From IMG/VR virus record IMGVR_UViG_3300009666_001319: a stretch of 20,000 nt of DNA, one strand, 5' to 3'. A program made the translations under genes and the position numbers. This document shows, in pieces, positions 5,440-20,000 of this stretch. The first letter of the stretch is position 1. Each line of letters starts with the position of its first letter. The DNA is from an uncultured virus (IMG/VR IMGVR_UViG_3300009666_001319) (Duplodnaviria; Heunggongvirae; Uroviricota; Caudoviricetes). The notes under the pieces are model-generated. The model had not been told where the DNA came from and searched no databases. It saw only the letters and a list, made by a program, of their open reading frames with translations.

Positions 5440-7890
5440 TTATCCCAAAACAGGAAAATCATCCTTCCCAACCTGCAACACATCACCCTCCACAGGTTCC
5501 TCGCCGTTTTCATATTCACGGAACCGGCAGCCCAGGAGCATAGTTGTCGCGCTTCCCCCATCAGCCGGGCGCTTCCTCTTGATCTCGAAGTACCGCTGGA
5601 TGGCGCTGTTGAAGTTCTGCTGATTCTCCGGGCGATAGGTATGCTTATCGCACCAGTCCTTATACCGTGTATAGACGGCAGAAGTGCGGACTTCATAAGC
5701 CTCGCCTTCCTCCAGCCATGAAGAAACAAACTGTCCGATACGATCGGAGTCCTCGCGGTATTCCGTGTTGGCATCGATGACTGCCTGCGGATCATGAAGC
5801 TGTTCTGCGCGGAAAAGATGGTATCCCTCAAGGCACCAGTTGAAGATGGCGGACAGGTTGGCATCCTCGGCAAAGAAAGCCTTCAGCCCCTTGTCCTGCT
5901 CATGCTCCTCAAAATGCCTCTTAAACGGGATGGTCTTCAGACGGCCGGAATCAAAAAGGGTCATGTCACTGACGTTGGGACGATAGTTGGTGTTGATGAA
6001 AATCTTGAAGTTCGGCTTGAAGTCGAAGCTGTTCTCATGCAGAAACCGGGCATTCAGAGTATCGTTGCCGGTCATCCTCTTAACCAGCGCGGCATTGAAG
6101 GTGATCTTCTTTTCCGGTTCCGAGATGTTCACAAAGCGCACTCCGGCCAGACGCGCAATCTCCTCGGACGGTCCGGATGCATTGGTGTTGCCGAACTTCG
6201 TGGAAAGCATCTCAGGGTTACTGGTTTTGCCGTAGTCGCCCATGATACGCAGGAAGGTCTCCATCGTGGTACCCTTACCGTTGCGACTGGTGGCTCCGTA
6301 GAGGATGAAGAGACACTCCAAAGAAGTATCCCCGGTCAGCGCGTAACCGAGAGCCTTTTGCAGGTATGCCGCCAGGTCGGAATCATTCATCATGACCTCT
6401 GTGATGAACTGCGCCCAGCGAGGACACGATGCCTCCGGGTCATAGGTCACGCCGGACATCAGTGTGATGAAGTCCTCCGGATCATGCGGACGGAATTCGC
6501 CTGTCGTCAGGTTCAGCGTCCCGTTCTTGCAGTTGAACAGATTTGTATTCTGGTCAAAAACCCTGTGCTTTACAGGATGAACGGACTTCGCATCCTCGAT
6601 CATGGTCTTCCTGTGCTTCCGGAGCTGCAGCTTTACCGCCCTCTTGATCAGGCGGGTTCTCGTATCCTCGTTCTTGATATCCCCGGCGAAGTGGTAGAGC
6701 TTATTTGCCAGATTCTTTGCAAGTTCTGCTACCGCCAGGGCATTCTCGTCCGGCTGCCAGACAGAGCCGTCATAGACATACCAGATACCACGGTCGGCAT
6801 TGAATCTCGCAATCGGCTTGTAATAATCAGCGAAGAGATTACCAATACCGATTTCATCATTGCTGTACTTCTCCTCCGACTGCGGCTTGAGCTCCTCCAG
6901 CGTCTTGGTAACCCGGCTCAGATCAGGACGGAAGCTGGCATGCTCATCCTCATCATCCAGATCGGCAAAATCATCCTCCGCAGATGTGGTTTCCCGGATC
7001 GGGCGATAAATCGTATCATTCGAGGACACCGCATTGCGGATGGTGATCTGGCCGTAGGTGCGATCACCCGTCTGCCGATCCCACTTGTCGCGCATGAGTC
7101 CAGAAGTTCTGAAGATGCGGTCGATCTGCTCCTCCACATTCCCGCACCAGAACGACAGGATAGAAACCAGCGCCATGTCCGCATCGGACTGGCTGTCGTA
7201 GCCTTCCTCCCAGCGTCCATCCATCAGGGCTTTGAACTTCTCCCCGGATTCCGATCTGGAAGCGTGTTCGATGACCTGCTCATCGGTCAGATAGGAACAC
7301 GGCTCGACAGTACGATTCGACACCTGCATCTTCCGCTTCATGAAGGTGTCCAGGAGATTCTGCAGCGCCTCATCGTTCCTGGTCACCGTGCCGGCGCGGA
7401 ACTCATCACCTGTGACAGTCACAAAGCGGTTGGTCGTTCCCGGCAGATAGACTTCCAATCCGTGCTGACGGTTGTTGATGTAGTAGACGGTCTTGTCGTA
7501 GGCAAAATCCGGAGACAGGCGGAAGAAACCGCGAAGGCCGGTACCGCTCGGAGACTTCTCGAAATAGGCGTCCGGCAGGAATGCCAGGATGCTCGCCGCC
7601 ACATCGTTGAGGCTCCCGTCCTCCCGGATGCAGTGATCGATGTCGATAGCACCGATGCCCTCGGAAACACGATAGCCGATGCCGTCCCAGCCGCCCATCG
7701 CATAGGCTTTCATTGCCGTGCCGAAGTCAGCGAAGGTAGACGGATCGTTGGTCTTCGCAAGCTGCCCGGTCCTCGGATTATAGGGAACCTTGGTGGGTTT
7801 CCCTCTGCGCTTTTCCAGTTTCCACACGCAGAAGGACGCATTGTTTTTAAGTTCCTGCGGGATGTTTACAAAGTTCACTTTTGCGCTCAT
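5440..7890 (-). CDS. Primase-polymerase (NrS-1-like AEP) fused to D5/P4-family SF3 helicase
   Basis: KVPYNP, IDIDHC, EKSPSGTGL, EVY...RFVTVTG; helical bundle SQSDADMAL...SGLMRDKW; D5_N FNCKNGTLNL; Walker A GATSRNGKGT; VKRMTGNDTLNARFLH. Confidence 0.92.
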   Translation of the reverse strand: MSAKVNFVNIPQELKNNASFCVWKLEKRRGKPTKVPYNPRTGQLAKTNDPSTFADFGTAMKAYAMGGWDGIGYRVSEGIGAIDIDHCIREDGSLNDVAASILAFLPDAYFEKSPSGTGLRGFFRLSPDFAYDKTVYYINNRQHGLEVYLPGTTNRFVTVTGDEFRAGTVTRNDEALQNLLDTFMKRKMQVSNRTVEPCSYLTDEQVIEHASRSESGEKFKALMDGRWEEGYDSQSDADMALVSILSFWCGNVEEQIDRIFRTSGLMRDKWDRQTGDRTYGQITIRNAVSSNDTIYRPIRETTSAEDDFADLDDEDEHASFRPDLSRVTKTLEELKPQSEEKYSNDEIGIGNLFADYYKPIARFNADRGIWYVYDGSVWQPDENALAVAELAKNLANKLYHFAGDIKNEDTRTRLIKRAVKLQLRKHRKTMIEDAKSVHPVKHRVFDQNTNLFNCKNGTLNLTTGEFRPHDPEDFITLMSGVTYDPEASCPRWAQFITEVMMNDSDLAAYLQKALGYALTGDTSLECLFILYGATSRNGKGTTMETFLRIMGDYGKTSNPEMLSTKFGNTNASGPSEEIARLAGVRFVNISEPEKKITFNAALVKRMTGNDTLNARFLHENSFDFKPNFKIFINTNYRPNVSDMTLFDSGRLKTIPFKRHFEEHEQDKGLKAFFAEDANLSAIFNWCLEGYHLFRAEQLHDPQAVIDANTEYREDSDRIGQFVSSWLEEGEAYEVRTSAVYTRYKDWCDKHTYRPENQQNFNSAIQRYFEIKRKRPADGGSATTMLLGCRFREYENGEEPVEGDVLQVGKDDFPVLG

Positions 7891-8402
7891 ACACTTGCGC
7901 TCCTTTCCTCGTTGTGCAGCGAAATGGGTACCAGACCGAGCTGGACGGAAACGGCGTGGTCGATGGAATCAATCAGATCCCTGTCCTCGATTCTGCCCAC
8001 ATAGTTTCTCAGCTGATCCTTGCTGATAGTCGTGATCTGCTCCGCCAGGATCATGGAATTATCCATCATCTGATGCTTGTCCGTGATAACATCCGGGTCC
8101 AGTTCCGTGTGGCACGGCAGGTTCGGCTTCTTAAGCTGCCTCGTCATCGGCAGCACATTCAGCGTCTCCGCATAGGTGTTACCGACATCGTTCGACACGA
8201 TCAGCACAGGACGGCAGCCGCCCTGCACGCTTGTCCCCGCATGGGGTTCGAGGTCGGCAAACCAGATGTCTCCCCGTTGCGGAGTGCGGGATGTGTTCCT
8301 GTATCGTCTGACCGGCTCCGCTGCCGGCGTTATATATTTCCACGGATTGAAACCGAGCCTCGACCGGTAATCCGTCCGCTTGCGTTTGTTCTTGCGTCCC
8401 AA
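7887..8402 (-). CDS. PemK/MazF-family endoribonuclease-like protein with basic N-terminal extension
   Basis: TTG start with AGGAGGTG RBS; QRGDIWFADL ... GGCRPVLIVSND ... VLPMT ... SMILAEQITTISK. Confidence 0.9.
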   Translation of the reverse strand: MGRKNKRKRTDYRSRLGFNPWKYITPAAEPVRRYRNTSRTPQRGDIWFADLEPHAGTSVQGGCRPVLIVSNDVGNTYAETLNVLPMTRQLKKPNLPCHTELDPDVITDKHQMMDNSMILAEQITTISKDQLRNYVGRIEDRDLIDSIDHAVSVQLGLVPISLHNEERSASV

Positions 8403-15945: not shown

Positions 15946-16458
15946 TTAAAGCTGGGAAAGGTCAGTCAGGAAAGCCTCGTACTTTTCGGCAGGCAGCTCG
16001 CTCACCTTTGCCACACCGTAGGTCTTAAGGATCGCGCCGATCTTCTCATTGTTGGAGCGATCCTTCTTCAGCTTCTGGACGATGATCTTCGTGATATCGT
16101 CCTGGGTGACGGACGGTGCGGGTGTATCTGCTGACTTCGATTCAGCGGGTTTCTCCTTCTGATCAGGCTGCTCCGCCTCTACTGCACCAGCCGTATCAGC
16201 CACAGGAGCAACATCAGCCCCAGCATCACCATCCACAGTTCCGGTTCCGGCATCCTCGGCATCATTGGCTTCACCTTCCTTCTTCCCACCCTGGCTGATG
16301 CTGTTCATGATGTCCCTCGCTGTGCCGGCATCCAGCGCCTCCAGCATCGAGATCACCCCGGCAAACACCAGGCCGACTCCATCCGTCAACTTGCTCCAGC
16401 TGACAGTCACTTCCTTCTTCTCGACTGTATTCACAGCAGCCGCATTAGTCTCCGTCAT
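15946..16458 (-). CDS. Phage hypothetical protein typical of the position upstream of DUF2800
   Basis: GGAGGG RBS; low-complexity linker; C-terminal ILKTYGVAKVSELPAEKYEAFL pattern. Confidence 0.8.
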   Translation of the reverse strand: MTETNAAAVNTVEKKEVTVSWSKLTDGVGLVFAGVISMLEALDAGTARDIMNSISQGGKKEGEANDAEDAGTGTVDGDAGADVAPVADTAGAVEAEQPDQKEKPAESKSADTPAPSVTQDDITKIIVQKLKKDRSNNEKIGAILKTYGVAKVSELPAEKYEAFLTDLSQL

Positions 16459-16939
16459 AGATCAGGCCCTCCTCTTCATCATCTTCATGGGGATTCCAGT
16501 CATCCTCCTCGTAGCCGGGATCAGGCTCAGAAGGCTTTCTTCCAAAGAATGCATCCAGCAGTTCCCCTTCCAGCACCAGGCACGGAATATGCTGCTTGAC
16601 CGGGATACCCAGTTCCCTTGCTACGGCGATCTCACGCTTCATGCCTTCGGTGATCCTGTTCCCGATGACCCAGAGCTCATCACAGCCGCTCAGCCAGTCA
16701 AGGCCGAACCGGATGCCCGCCTCCCGCTCCTCCGGCACATCCTCGGACAGAAATTCCGGGAAGAACAGGTGCGGAGCCATCGGCATACAGCCGAGGCTGA
16801 CAGCGTACCCACAGGCAAGCCGCGCCAACTGCCTGTTGTGCCGGAGGTCTTCCGCCCTCTGTCCGACCGTAGCGCCTCTCGGACGGAACGGCGAGCAGAT
16901 GAACACCCTCCTGTGTTTCTCAATGTGGACTTTCTTCAT
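16445..16939 (-). CDS. DUF4406-like protein (nucleoside 2-deoxyribosyltransferase-like fold)
   Basis: VFICSPF ... PMAPHLFFPEFL ... CDELWVIG ... ITEGMKREI; AAAGGA RBS. Confidence 0.8.
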   Translation of the reverse strand: MKKVHIEKHRRVFICSPFRPRGATVGQRAEDLRHNRQLARLACGYAVSLGCMPMAPHLFFPEFLSEDVPEEREAGIRFGLDWLSGCDELWVIGNRITEGMKREIAVARELGIPVKQHIPCLVLEGELLDAFFGRKPSEPDPGYEEDDWNPHEDDEEEGLIYDGD

Positions 16940-17043
16940 GTACGGTTCCTTTCTTCGGGTCTTTCCCGATTACAAAGCGAACGGCCACAGTCCGAAAACT
17001 GCAGCCGTCCGTATGTCAGATTGGTGGGAGGAAATCAGGTCCT

Positions 17044-17081
17044 CTCATATACTGTCGTGGGAGAAGGTGTTTTAGAAGTAT
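17044..17081 (-). promoter_or_regulatory. Copy B of the 38-bp direct repeat; candidate promoter for the element-encoded sigma-like factor
   Basis: CTCATATACTGTCGTGGGAGAaggTGTTTTAGAAGTAT; starts 5 nt after the sigma-like gene stop and points into the replication genes. Confidence 0.65.
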
Positions 17082-17086
17082 CACCT

Positions 17087-17863
17087 TCAAAAAATTTTAT
17101 AAACTTTCTTCACATGCGTAATTGCTCCTTCCAGACGGTAATTTACCGCTCTCTGAGAAATACCGATAATGTCCGCAATCTCCTGCTGCGTGTAACCATA
17201 CTGATAATAAAGAATGAATACCTCGCGCTGCTTATCGGTCATGCTCTCCAGCATCTCGCGCCTGGTCTCCTTGCGGATGTAGATGGTCAGCGGGTCTTCA
17301 CCGATACGATCTTCCCGCCAGTTGTACTCATTACGGTAGGATTTCTCAAGCGCATCTTCGGCATCGCCGTCCTTGTCGCCGTTGTCATCGCTGTCATAAT
17401 CCTTGGTACCCGTCCTGCTTCCCGTGCGATTCATGCTGTTCTGCTCCACCCTGTGATTCCCGATCAGCGTAAGGGCAAGCACCCAGGGCTGGGATTCCAG
17501 AAAGCCCTCCGGCAGTTCGATGTTCTGCTTGATCTCGCCGCCCTTCTCGCTTTCCTTCATCTTGTCGAAATAGTAGGTGAAGGAGGTGCAGGACGGCACC
17601 CAGACAACCGTGCGACCGGAGCCGTTGTCGTAGACCGCGTAGCCATTCGAGTAGACCAGAATGCCGTCTCCGTATCCCAACGGATCGGGATAAGATGCAA
17701 TCGGCTCCCCGGCTTCTTCAGCCAGCTTCTTCGAGGTAGGAGTCTTTTCCGCCTTGCTGACAGGTCCAAGGATGCTGATCAGTTCGCCCAGGGTGGTATT
17801 CTCGGTGATGGTCGAGATGATGTTGCTGCCGCCATTGATGTTCTCGTTAATAATGTTCTTCAT
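17087..17863 (-). CDS. Sigma-70 region 4-containing protein (258 aa) with uncharacterised N-terminal domain
   Basis: ATG at 17863 after AGAAAGGA; C-terminal LESMTDKQREVFILYYQYGYTQQEIADIIGISQRAVNYRL is a region-4 HTH. Confidence 0.85.
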   Translation of the reverse strand: MKNIINENINGGSNIISTITENTTLGELISILGPVSKAEKTPTSKKLAEEAGEPIASYPDPLGYGDGILVYSNGYAVYDNGSGRTVVWVPSCTSFTYYFDKMKESEKGGEIKQNIELPEGFLESQPWVLALTLIGNHRVEQNSMNRTGSRTGTKDYDSDDNGDKDGDAEDALEKSYRNEYNWREDRIGEDPLTIYIRKETRREMLESMTDKQREVFILYYQYGYTQQEIADIIGISQRAVNYRLEGAITHVKKVYKIF

Positions 17864-17935
17864 CTTGCGTCCTTTCTGCGGACGCATAAGGCAGGGACAT
17901 TCTGCGGGACACCGATGGCGGCAGGCACAGGGCAT

Positions 17936-17989
17936 AAAGAAAGCCGGGCATGACGACAAAGGGTGTCCTTACGATCCGTCCATGCCGGC
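17936..17989 (-). terminator. Terminator-like hairpin in the leader of the sigma-like gene
   Basis: Imperfect stem 17943-17955 with 17977-17989, followed by TTTCTTT on the minus strand. Confidence 0.45.
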
Positions 17990-18336
17990 CGCCTGTACTG
18001 GCTGTACAAGCTGCCAAGCTGGATTTATCGTCTGAACATCCGCTGCCGTATGCATCCGGCTTAAGATATTGTTTTTGATATGTTCCTATTTTCAGGGTTA
18101 TCGGACTTACGGACCGGTGTTCCCCTGAACTGTGTTTAGCTTACTGCTGAAATCGCTTCTGGTCGTTAGCGCCGGCGACCACGGCTGTTGTCGCCAAAGA
18201 CCACACCCGGTGGCCCCTGCTCCAAAATTGCGTCTTCATTCGCATCCCGCTCACCTCTCCTTTCGGTCATCATCTTCGCATTTACAGATTTCAGATCTTT
18301 TTCTCGGTTCCGGCAGATGTTTTTACACATCATCCG

Positions 18337-18364
18337 TTGTAAAAAACGCATTTTCTGATATACT
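18337..18364 (+). promoter_or_regulatory. SigA-type promoter candidate for the defence operon
   Basis: TTGTAA (18337-18342), 16-bp spacer, TATACT (18359-18364) preceded by TGn (extended -10). Confidence 0.5.
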
Positions 18365-18520
18365 GTAATCAGGCGGTTCTATGTGCTGCCCTTTTTGATT
18401 GCCCTGTAATGTAGTCTGGGCAGCTCCCACGACGGTTTTCGTCGATCTAAATCTCTCCAACCGTTTATCCCCAGGAGACATTTAGAGTTTATTCCATTTC
18501 AAAAATACAGGCGGTACACC

Positions 18521-18548
18521 ACGCGCCATGACGCGCCATGACGCGCCA
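18521..18548 (+). repeat. Tandem 10-bp repeat ACGCGCCATG x2.8
   Basis: ACGCGCCATG ACGCGCCATG ACGCGCCA, ending 26 nt before the ATG at 18575. Confidence 0.9.
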
Positions 18549-18574
18549 AATCTGCAGGAAGGACAGAGCGAGGC

Positions 18575-19780
18575 ATGACCTTTGAAGTTTTTTTCAACCT
18601 GATATTTGATATCCTCGGCGGAGGAAAAGACATCGCTGTCTTCATGCGTGAACTGTTCGACCAGATTCTGGAGCCACCGGAAAACTCGGGTTTCATAAAC
18701 CCGCTATACGACAAGGGCGCACCAACACTGCGGAAGTATGTGAATCCCAATGACACCAAACACCATCTTCCGCCCAAAGTGGTAAAGCAGATGCACGATT
18801 ACATAGAACCGGCAAAGTTCTCGACTTATCTGCTTACCTTTTCTGAACAAACCCTGGAGGACCTGACCGAAGTACTGAAACCGCACATCCCGGATGTCAC
18901 CGCCTACAATGTAAATGACAGATGCGCCGACCTCTTCAAAAAGATCCTCGATGATATCATTGGGCTGAACCAACAGCCTGAGCAGCTGTCTCTTTCCACA
19001 GTTATGAGTACTTCTCTGCCTCCGGCTGTGCGTGACCAGTTCGGCGCTCGGCTCCTTTTGGAGACCCACGGCTTCTGCCCATCCAAAGGCTGCACCAACG
19101 AGCTGAGGGAGATCACGGAAGATGGCTCTGCCGTTCCCAACTATGTCCCGACCCTGATTGACGGGATGCAACCTCCTGTGTTTGAAAACCTCATCGCTCT
19201 GTGTCCGGCCTGTCATGCACGGTATCTGGCCGAAGTCAGACGCTCCTCAAATGAAAAATCGCTCCAGTTTCTCCGGCAGAAAAAACAGGAACTCATGATT
19301 GAGGACACGACAAACAGCATTCTTCCGCGCCACGTAATTGAAGAAGGTGTGGACAGGCTCCTTCGGAAAATACAGGATGACCTTATAGAACTGAGCGATG
19401 ACGATCTCGATGCACTCCGCCTGAACTATGACCCGGTCAAAGTCCGGCAGAAGATTCCGGGCGATACCCGCGAACAGCGGAAGCTTCTGAAAAAAGTGTT
19501 GGAGAATGTCCGCGAGAACTACAGCCTGGTCGAAAACAATCTGAAAAACCTGAACAAGGAACAGGTTCTCCGGCAGCGGGTATTTTCCGCCCAGATCAAG
19601 AACCTGTTCATAGATTTCGATGAGACGACTTTTGATGGTGAGCCCCTGTCCCAGACGGTCATCTTTGACAAGCTGGTGGACTGGCTCCATAGAAACACGG
19701 ATGAAGATGTGGAGATCTGTGCCATAGTGGTTTCCTATTTCATCCAGAGCTGCGAGGTGTTTGATGCTATTTCCGAGTAA
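18575..19780 (+). CDS. ABC three-component/Lamassu-like effector: unknown N-terminal domain, HNH-like Zn-binding domain, ABC-3C C-terminal domain
   Basis: CPSKGC ... FENLIALCPACHARY; C-terminal IVVSYFIQSCEVF matches the ABC-3C CTD pattern; overlaps a small middle-component gene. Confidence 0.75.
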   Translation: MTFEVFFNLIFDILGGGKDIAVFMRELFDQILEPPENSGFINPLYDKGAPTLRKYVNPNDTKHHLPPKVVKQMHDYIEPAKFSTYLLTFSEQTLEDLTEVLKPHIPDVTAYNVNDRCADLFKKILDDIIGLNQQPEQLSLSTVMSTSLPPAVRDQFGARLLLETHGFCPSKGCTNELREITEDGSAVPNYVPTLIDGMQPPVFENLIALCPACHARYLAEVRRSSNEKSLQFLRQKKQELMIEDTTNSILPRHVIEEGVDRLLRKIQDDLIELSDDDLDALRLNYDPVKVRQKIPGDTREQRKLLKKVLENVRENYSLVENNLKNLNKEQVLRQRVFSAQIKNLFIDFDETTFDGEPLSQTVIFDKLVDWLHRNTDEDVEICAIVVSYFIQSCEVFDAISE

Positions 19781-20000
19781 AGTAATATCCTATAATGAGA
19801 GCATCCTGCCCAAGCTGCCTCTCGTCCTGCACTATCTTGAGAATGGACCGAAGAAGATCAGTGACGTTTACCGGTACACGAAAGGAAAAGTGACAGACCT
19901 CAGCGACCTGTTCGAGGTCCTGGATTGCCTTTATGCCCTGGGAATGATCGATCTGAACGGAGACAGTCTTTTGAGAATCGGGAAGGAGGATGCAGAATAA
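19764..20000 (+). CDS. ABC three-component middle component (MC7-like / LmuC-like)
   Basis: MLFPSKVISYNESIL ... EVLDCLYALGMI; GAGGTG RBS; ends with an internal AGGAGG, suggesting a coupled third gene at the window edge. Confidence 0.7.
   Translation: MLFPSKVISYNESILPKLPLVLHYLENGPKKISDVYRYTKGKVTDLSDLFEVLDCLYALGMIDLNGDSLLRIGKEDAE

Follow-up and report, generated by a model that had tools for sequence, protein, structure and literature searches.

The DNA analysed here is a 20,000-nucleotide (nt) stretch, the window, from the uncultured Caudoviricetes virus IMGVR_UViG_3300009666_001319, and comes from a 33.5-kb IMG/VR provirus record, of which it represents bases 1771-21770 read on the minus strand. 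At its end the window carries the first genes of a Lamassu operon in which the effector retains an HNH fold from which the catalytic histidine has been lost, and this loss is shared by nearly all relatives that carry the same N-terminal domain (NTD). In most of these relatives the operon has a fourth gene, which encodes a small helix-turn-helix (HTH) protein of the HTH_26 family. On balance, and with modest confidence, we favour the reading that this is a short Lamassu operon with a dead HNH module, the output of which would arise from direct binding between the NTD and the HTH_26 protein. Work on Lamassu so far has dealt with how an SMC-like sensor unleashes a nuclease. A widespread sub-class that gave up the nuclease and yet is strongly conserved must stop phages in another way.

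Identification of a short Lamassu operon

The window ends in overlapping genes that are intact and translationally coupled (Table 1). The first encodes an LmuA-like effector of 401 amino acids (aa), and both its open reading frame (ORF) and its CTD11 domain lie where a sequence-only reading of this DNA had placed them. It overlaps by 17 nt the gene for an MC7 middle component, the equivalent of LmuC, the start of which we place at an internal ATG, relatives aligning from residue 2 of the TTG-started ORF. The stop codon of MC7 in turn overlaps the ATG of the third gene as TAATG. An ABC ATPase had been predicted to follow just beyond position 20000, and the 585-aa ORF present there matches both Pfam DUF2326 (1.7e-15) and the PADLOC LmuB model (1.6e-11). 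Its translation contains the Walker A motif ...SNSIGKST and the Walker B motif AFIHDS, which fits the hhhhD[Q/S/T/E] form given for short Lamassu systems in PMC12663957.

A structural model of the effector was built from 52 homologues, with a mean predicted local distance difference test score (pLDDT) of 76 and values near 90 over the N-terminal 130 residues, and was compared with 48,161 PDB chains using VIA structural alignment. Residues 254-401 superimpose modestly on the C-terminal domain (CTD) in solved LmuA proteins (9nxx_A, Z 5.9; 9hqx_A, Z 5.7). Because CTD11, MC7 and DUF2326 are recognised in Pfam and LmuA and LmuB in PADLOC, and because the C-terminal fold and the gene order are also those of Lamassu, we assign the locus on these homologies to the ABC-3C, or short (type II) Lamassu, operons, as the earlier reading had supposed. 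A search of NCBIfam assigned neither the effector nor MC7 to a family. The gene order is conserved among relatives, which were found in 127 species genomes and in 109 stretches of IMG/VR; effector, middle component and ATPase follow one another in 143 of 160 related loci, most of the exceptions being interrupted by contig ends.

Loss of the catalytic histidine from the HNH module

Residues 145-247 of the effector model align with HNH domains, the closest in VIA being those of IscB (9liq, Z 7.9, 73 residues aligned), McrA (6ghc, Z 7.8, 85 aligned) and Cap5 (8fm1, Z 7.8, 88 aligned). Foldseek agrees weakly (McrA, E 0.039; Cap5, 110 columns at a root mean square deviation of 3.2-3.6), and a profile search of PDB sequences returned McrA at E 0.0014. 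The Pfam HNH model itself stayed below its cut-off of 21.4 bits, with a score of 15.5 (E 0.02, aa 202-216). Among the 52 aligned full-length homologues C168, C173, N205, C210, P211 and C213 are invariant, so that the four cysteines proposed earlier as zinc ligands are borne out, and the HNH hairpin contains no conserved histidine. The His-Me finger nucleases are defined by a general-base histidine. The corresponding strand in the window, AVPNYVPTLID, is without one, and L194 occupies the histidine column when the protein is aligned with relatives that have no NTD (234-269 aa; Paenibacillus, Cohnella, Rhodanobacter and others), which read Y[QE]IAHIYP...FENK[VI]ALC.DCH.

The difference extends to the two classes as a whole. 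In 93 distinct HNH segments from NTD-bearing proteins, drawn from 149 NTD-positive loci among the 160, histidine is present at the catalytic column in two; the column otherwise holds leucine (39), valine (13), arginine (10), isoleucine (6), glycine (5) and other residues, and the terminal histidine is found in 18. In contrast, the NTD-less HNH-CTD11 proteins have both the catalytic and the terminal histidine in 120 of 120 cases among the matches listed, out of 837 proteins at E<=1e-5, and in the same 120 both cysteine pairs and the asparagine are kept. Metagenome and viral loci of this short class (n=83) gave a catalytic-histidine motif in 80 and a terminal-histidine motif in 76; of the three without the His motif, one is interrupted by its contig and two are variants. 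By alignment, then, the loss of the catalytic histidine holds across the NTD-bearing family, and killing by HNH cleavage, which the sequence-only reading had already doubted for this variant, appears unlikely.

We also estimated the ratio of nonsynonymous to synonymous substitution rates (dN/dS) from independent pairs of 70-93% identity. The median was 0.084 for the NTD (19 pairs), 0.077 for the degenerate HNH (dHNH; 15 pairs), 0.059 for CTD11 (12 pairs) and 0.225 for the linker (18 pairs), values that are rough, as dS is saturated in many pairs. These ratios indicate that the NTD, the dHNH and CTD11 are all under purifying selection and that the dHNH is not decaying. That the operon is merely an inactive remnant of an HNH-type Lamassu, as the lost histidine might imply, is therefore extremely improbable in our view: ratios of 0.06-0.08 in all three domains, three intact and coupled genes, and the many genomes and viral stretches in which relatives keep the same order all speak against it.

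The module could instead still be a nuclease in which, for instance, H214, D196, E163 or Y190 provides a non-canonical base or metal site, with the NTD as an auto-inhibitory or targeting domain and the HTH_26 protein as an ordinary repressor. The fold, the zinc site and the asparagine are all retained, the low ratio (omega 0.077) is that of a maintained domain, the window protein keeps its CPACH, and the catalytic-column histidine does persist in two NTD-bearing segments. The residue that defines these nucleases has nevertheless been replaced by leucine, valine, arginine, isoleucine, glycine or others in the remaining 91, with the terminal histidine likewise absent from most. Moreover, NTD-CTD6 and NTD-CTD11 proteins without any HNH exist, which shows the HNH to be dispensable in the same systems. 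We consider continued nuclease activity quite unlikely.

Two further groups of effector sequences were observed. Loci from Kallipyga, Atopobium, Collinsella, Actinotignum, Alterileibacterium and a Clostridiales metagenome-assembled genome (MAG) (L021-L028) gave identical tblastn statistics for all three proteins, which suggests that a single element was passed very recently among distant genera; this group is among the few with a histidine at the catalytic column (YCVAHIS). A third effector variant (L074, L076 and L077; 286-360 aa) has an NTD-like N-terminus and CxxC...CRRC and has lost the conserved asparagine, lysine standing at the N205 column; tblastn found no MC7 or HTH match at these three loci.

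The N-terminal domain is shared by several sensor architectures

The helical N-terminal domain of about 130 residues noted previously is supported by prediction: folded alone, it gave eight helices with a pLDDT of 92.5 and a predicted template-modelling score of 0.85. The same reading had seen an HTH-like segment in it, APTLRKYVN. This part of the claim was not supported: no HTH family or fold is matched and the domain is acidic, with an isoelectric point (pI) of 4.94 in the window protein, a family median of 4.97, and 91 of 108 members acidic. The conserved positions are mostly hydrophobic, together with T51, Y55 and N112, and along with the acidity this argues against both an enzyme and a classical DNA-binding domain.

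No Pfam family corresponds to the NTD, any single one being matched by at most 3 of 35 members at E<=10. Comparison with the PDB gave nothing convincing (best VIA Z 4.9, a membrane transporter; best Foldseek E 0.6), and a protein-atlas search with residues 1-135 returned no usable match. The only matches in BFVD were three Siphoviridae proteins, all uncharacterised and evidently homologues (E 1.5e-6 to 3.7e-3). The clearest relationship is to a PADLOC LmuA model, PDLC03857, positions 1-134 of which match aa 1-134 of the window protein at E 4.3e-15, and which was matched by all 22 NTD representatives tested. NTD-CTD6 proteins match this model over its full length, and that LmuA class therefore consists of the NTD and a coupling domain only.

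Searched against 1.84 billion cluster representatives, a profile of 35 NTDs detected 709 of them at E<=1e-3, with the match N-terminal in nearly all of the 150 listed. In a Pfam scan of 40 of them CTD11 was found in 14, some too short to hold an HNH (for example 289-290 aa), and CTD6 in 5; NB-ARC, TPR and Sel1 were found once each, two were odd fusions and in 16 nothing was recognised. Besides the NTD-CTD11 operons, three other arrangements were seen: NTD-CTD6 with MC2 and a 604-aa ATPase; an NTD protein with a 215-221-aa protein and an AAA_13 ATPase (760-789 aa); and NTD-NACHT-SNaCT14. Judged by its place in these proteins, the NTD occupies the site of the effector in four sensor architectures.

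Such a domain might also be an adaptor of the effector-associated or death-like kind which, once freed and oligomerised, recruits or activates an effector encoded outside the operon, whether a host or a phage protein. An acidic, helical domain without catalytic residues would suit that role, the N-terminus of NACHT/STAND and ABC-3C proteins is also a site for adaptors, and there is a weak likeness to the N-terminus of a PADLOC HamA model. However, of the five operon-carrying genomes searched, four hold one copy of the NTD and one holds two, which makes a homotypic adaptor that recruits a second NTD-tagged effector unlikely. Nor is there a conserved extra gene downstream other than HTH_26, in 150 clusters among 269 neighbour proteins. 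An adaptor of this kind seems to us unlikely.

An HTH_26 gene accompanies the N-terminal domain

The provirus record stops 13 nt past the stop codon of the ATPase gene, and its final letters, ...TGAAAGGAGCACTGTT, carry an AAGGAG ribosome-binding site; the expected HTH_26 start codon would be the next base after the terminal letters ...AAGGAGCACTGTT. The same operon is present in a Lachnospiraceae MAG (L003) on a 75%-identical phage element, where the gene for an 82-aa Cro/C1-type HTH_26 protein begins at a TTG that is separated from the ATPase stop by AAGGAG and a further 7 nt. From the ribosome-binding site and these relatives we infer that the window operon continues into an HTH_26 gene severed by the record end. 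A search of IMG/VR for an extension past this end, using an 18-nt junction pattern, yielded only one unrelated chance match.

Across the family the HTH_26 gene starts between -7 and +82 nt relative to the end of the ATPase gene. Taking as evaluable the NTD-CTD11 loci with at least 260 nt past the ATPase, it abuts the ATPase gene in 106 of 116. Among short His-intact loci the figure is 0/4 in the genome set, and in the metagenome set of the short class it is 1/50, the exception (L169) being itself without the histidine, so that none of the 49 His-intact loci has the gene. In the other NTD architectures all 13 evaluable loci of 21 have it, the remaining 8 ending before the expected position. Grouped into effector clusters at 60% identity, HTH_26 accompanies 23 of 25 NTD clusters and 0 of 19 His-intact clusters (Fisher p 1.5e-10), an association that must be discounted somewhat, since the clusters are still related by descent and some records appear twice in the raw locus counts. 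The gene is found with the NACHT architecture too: in L286 it overlaps the 3' end of the NACHT gene. The proteins are Cro-sized (65-89 aa), and most are basic, with a median pI of 8.6. For the seven tested, PADLOC returned no more than weak generic HTH matches (best E 1.7e-5), and it does not list these proteins as parts of Lamassu.

The effector of the exceptional locus (L169:4542-5786, +) is a 415-aa CTD11 protein with a differing N-terminal region of about 190 residues that is not matched by the NTD profile. Its HNH is dead, with arginine at the histidine column and serine at the terminal histidine, and the HTH_26 gene follows its ATPase. This region could represent a second N-terminal domain, or a very divergent one, that has the same pairing.

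Regulatory coupling had been proposed before, with the sensor controlling a DNA-binding domain of the effector. A DNA-binding part does co-occur with these systems, although apparently as the separate HTH_26 gene and not as the NTD.

Proposed mechanism

In the solved Lamassu complexes, as described in PMC12663957 and 10.1101/2025.06.23.660979, a LmuB dimer and LmuC hold a LmuA monomer by its CTD and bind DNA ends, and the freed LmuA tetramerises through the same domain. By analogy, the products of the four-gene operon, which would lie at the outer edge of the prophage and be transcribed away from the phage replication operon, may assemble so that an ATPase dimer and MC7 hold one LmuA-like monomer through CTD11. 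This complex would sense DNA ends or replication intermediates, whereupon the LmuA-like protein would be freed and oligomerise through its C-terminal domain. With the general-base histidine gone, the output would be something other than HNH cleavage, and the basic dHNH may have been retained as a zinc-stabilised structural or DNA-contact module. The acting part would be the acidic, helical NTD together with the HTH_26 protein, most likely by direct binding of one to the other. Since canonical HNH cleavage would be missing and the NTD occurs in four architectures, paired with HTH_26, a two-part output module is the most economical explanation.

The binding could take two forms. Type II toxin-antitoxin pairs such as HigBA and MqsRA have a downstream XRE-HTH antitoxin, and in like manner the HTH_26 protein might neutralise a non-enzymatic toxic NTD and autoregulate the operon. 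Alternatively, the activated NTD might capture the HTH protein as a repressor.

Several observations count against this proposal. No HTH_26 homologue is present anywhere in the record itself, and the gene is missing from 10 of the 116 NTD-CTD11 loci, so it is not obligatory. Conversely, in one His-intact locus (L213) an HTH_26-like ORF lies about 1 kb past the ATPase. The window protein retains the terminal histidine H214 (in CPACH), D196, N205 and E163, which leaves room for a non-canonical catalytic arrangement. The N-terminus of the PADLOC HamA model is weakly matched by 5 of 22 NTD proteins (best E 4.9e-9); this suggests that the NTD can sit beside a real nuclease, which would fit an accessory role and not that of an effector. 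Finally, the NTD has neither a conserved polar constellation nor a fold match, and its role as effector is thus argued from position only.

A broader version of the proposal, which we put forward tentatively and think rather doubtful, is that the NTD and HTH_26 form a portable, non-enzymatic output module common to three kinds of ABC-3C/Lamassu ATPase and to a NACHT STAND protein, the output being altered transcription. The activated acidic NTD would then capture or release a Cro-like repressor and so lift repression from a killing function or, where a prophage like this one is concerned, from the early operon of the element itself, with no direct cleavage. If so, a Lamassu lineage would have exchanged its nuclease for gene regulation and kept the dead HNH only as a DNA-contact relic. 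The pairing across Lamassu types and a NACHT protein is in any case a testable candidate for a new immune output, and genes of the NTD class can be wrongly annotated as 'HNH endonuclease' or 'Lamassu-HNH'.

Genomic context

A phage replication module occupies the minus strand of the window, with genes for a sigma-like protein, nucleoside deoxyribosyltransferase, exonuclease, Gp2.5-like single-stranded DNA-binding protein, DNA polymerase, helicase, MazF-like protein, primase, HNH and NrdD. The MazF-like growth-inhibitor gene (7887-8402, -; PHROG 1936, E 3e-26) lies between the primase and helicase genes. A 562-aa ORF at 16265-17953 (+) runs antisense to three phage genes and, in sequence this rich in GC, is almost certainly spurious. 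Between the replication and defence operons the intergenic region contains an inverted and a tandem repeat (Table 1), which could serve as operators for the HTH_26 protein. A shared operator upstream of the effector gene was not apparent, no inverted repeat being common to the five elements compared (the window and four related).

The layout, an early operon diverging from effector, middle component and ATPase, with or without an XRE gene, at the edge of the genome, recurs in deposited phages. Streptococcus phage phiStag1 has a sigma-70 gene diverging from CTD11, 'MafI' (which is MC7), DUF2326 and the XRE gene yozG, and Javan422 and Ruminococcus phage NatCom_28274 have the same layout. The 'MafI family immunity protein' label on the phiStag1 gene (L166, PP091924.1 40989-41213) is probably a misannotation of the ABC-3C middle component. 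Among 80 IMG/VR loci (L083-L162), 29 records stop inside the operon or less than 1 kb past it and one starts less than 1 kb ahead of it, which suggests a fixed outward orientation at prophage ends. Automated provirus boundaries thus seem to fall systematically at the ABC-3C/Lamassu cassette. Elsewhere the downstream neighbours are type I, II and III restriction-modification, McrBC, BREX and Druantia genes.

The sequence-only reading had placed the effector in the 'repressor position'. This is true as geometry. It is also partly an artefact of truncation, because the record ends on the ribosome-binding site that in L003 precedes the HTH_26 gene, and loci of the same family outside phages mean that the geometry does not show the operon to have replaced a repressor. 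Following that line, the operon might be the lysogeny switch of the prophage, in which HTH_26 represses the divergent early operon and the Lamassu-type sensor relieves it through the NTD, so that the element is induced or reprogrammed when foreign DNA or DNA ends are sensed. In the window, L003, phiStag1, Javan422 and NatCom_28274 alike the operon does diverge from the early or replication operon, no other repressor was seen between the diverging operons, and the outward orientation at prophage ends would agree with such a function. But the same four-gene module is found in chromosomal defence islands beside restriction-modification, BREX, McrBC and Druantia genes and without phage genes, and the module is found on NACHT proteins as well. 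HTH_26 is moreover only Cro-sized and has no domain for oligomerisation or sensing; the real repressor could be a second, divergent HTH_3 gene, which in L003 lies after the HTH_26 gene; and the five elements share no recognisable operator. A lysogeny switch is, on this evidence, very unlikely.

Table 1. Features of the operon and of the region upstream, in window coordinates except where another sequence is named
Feature	Position	Strand	Evidence or remark
lmuA-like effector gene, 401 aa: NTD, degenerate HNH and CTD11	18575..19780	+	
NTD (aa 1-135), an acidic domain of eight helices that belongs to no described family	18575..18979	+	predicted fold
Degenerate HNH (dHNH, aa 151-247), ββα-metal fold	19025..19315	+	Zn ligands C168, C173, C210, C213; N205
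Catalytic His column, L194	19154-19156	+	alignment with NTD-less relatives
CTD11 (aa 252-396), coupling domain to ATPase and middle component	19328..19762	+	Pfam PF20277, E 5.3e-28
MC7 middle component (LmuC equivalent), 78 aa, ATG 19764	19764..20000	+	Pfam PF20292, E 2.1e-21
ABC ATPase (LmuB equivalent), 585 aa	first ATG base at 20000; G000:C1:1771 down to 14; L002:17-1771:-	+	
Sigma-factor-like gene, head of the replication operon, diverging from the defence operon	17087..17959	-	PHROGs sigma factor, 4.8e-11
Divergent intergenic region, 615 nt	17960..18574		
Promoter-like site	18337-18364	+	promoter count at chance level
13-nt inverted repeat TCTAAATCTCTCC / GGAGACATTTAGA, 15 nt apart	18446-18458 / 18474-18486		~90-130 nt upstream of effector start
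10-nt tandem repeat ACGCGCCATG x2	18521-18540		just ahead of effector start

Comparison with known systems

The system belongs to a catalogued family. Literature searches for a Lamassu with a degenerate HNH or with an HTH gene as its fourth gave nothing relevant, and we did not find the combination of histidine loss, an undescribed NTD and an HTH_26 gene shared with NACHT proteins in print. PMC12663957 lists 'HNH' and 'SMEK' effectors and one clade that 'seemingly lost the effector domain', and its 'SMEK' class or 'effector-less' clade might cover this family. The Escherichia coli 'Lamassu-var' (PMC11754643) was also compared; it has neither the NTD nor HTH_26.

Like DdmABC (LmuACB) of Vibrio cholerae and LmuACB of Salmonella enterica (9hqx, 9nxx), the locus combines an effector, a small middle component and an SMC-like ATPase of about 600 residues in overlapping genes; the C-terminal helical domain of the effector resembles the LmuA CTD (Z 5.7-5.9), and the Walker B motif is of the hhhhDS form, in line with the description of short Lamassu in PMC12663957. 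Those systems, according to 10.1101/2025.06.23.660979, have an active Cap4 nuclease, CTD7 and MC3, whereas here we find CTD11, MC7, a His-less HNH and an extra NTD, and in relatives the fourth HTH_26 gene. The N-terminal enzymatic effector domain that is usual in LmuA is lacking, the only enzyme-like domain being the His-less HNH fold.

The NTD-less HNH-CTD11 short Lamassu systems (effectors of 241-304 aa) share the CTD11, MC7 and DUF2326 ATPase families, and their HNH is homologous to that of the window protein, with 27-31% identity over aa 161-401. They differ in keeping the full series of Cys, Cys, His, Asn, Cys, Cys and His (120/120 among the matches listed) and in having no abutting HTH gene (0/4 and 0/49 of the His-intact loci), while the window protein adds the 135-aa NTD and has L194 at the catalytic column. 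The PDLC03857 systems have the same NTD, and in L275, L276 and L282 an HTH_26 gene after the ATPase, with CTD6 in place of CTD11, MC2 in place of MC7, an ABC ATPase and no HNH relic. The NTD-NACHT-SNaCT14 proteins (L286, L288) have the same NTD at their N-terminus; here the sensor is a STAND NTPase and not an ABC ATPase, and there is no middle component.

The HNH module shares its fold (Z 7.1-7.9, 73-91 residues aligned), the four-cysteine zinc site and the structural asparagine with EcoKMcrA (6ghc), ScoMcrA (5zmm), CBASS Cap5 (8fm1) and the HNH of IscB and Cas9. Unlike these His-Me finger nucleases, the window family is without the general-base histidine, and its terminal histidine is not conserved. 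As in HigBA and MqsRA, the gene for a presumed toxic module has a small XRE-type HTH gene downstream, in translational coupling. The resemblance is one of analogy, with no homology shown: here the presumed toxic module makes up a single domain within a sensor-coupled protein, and its gene is separated from the HTH gene by two others.

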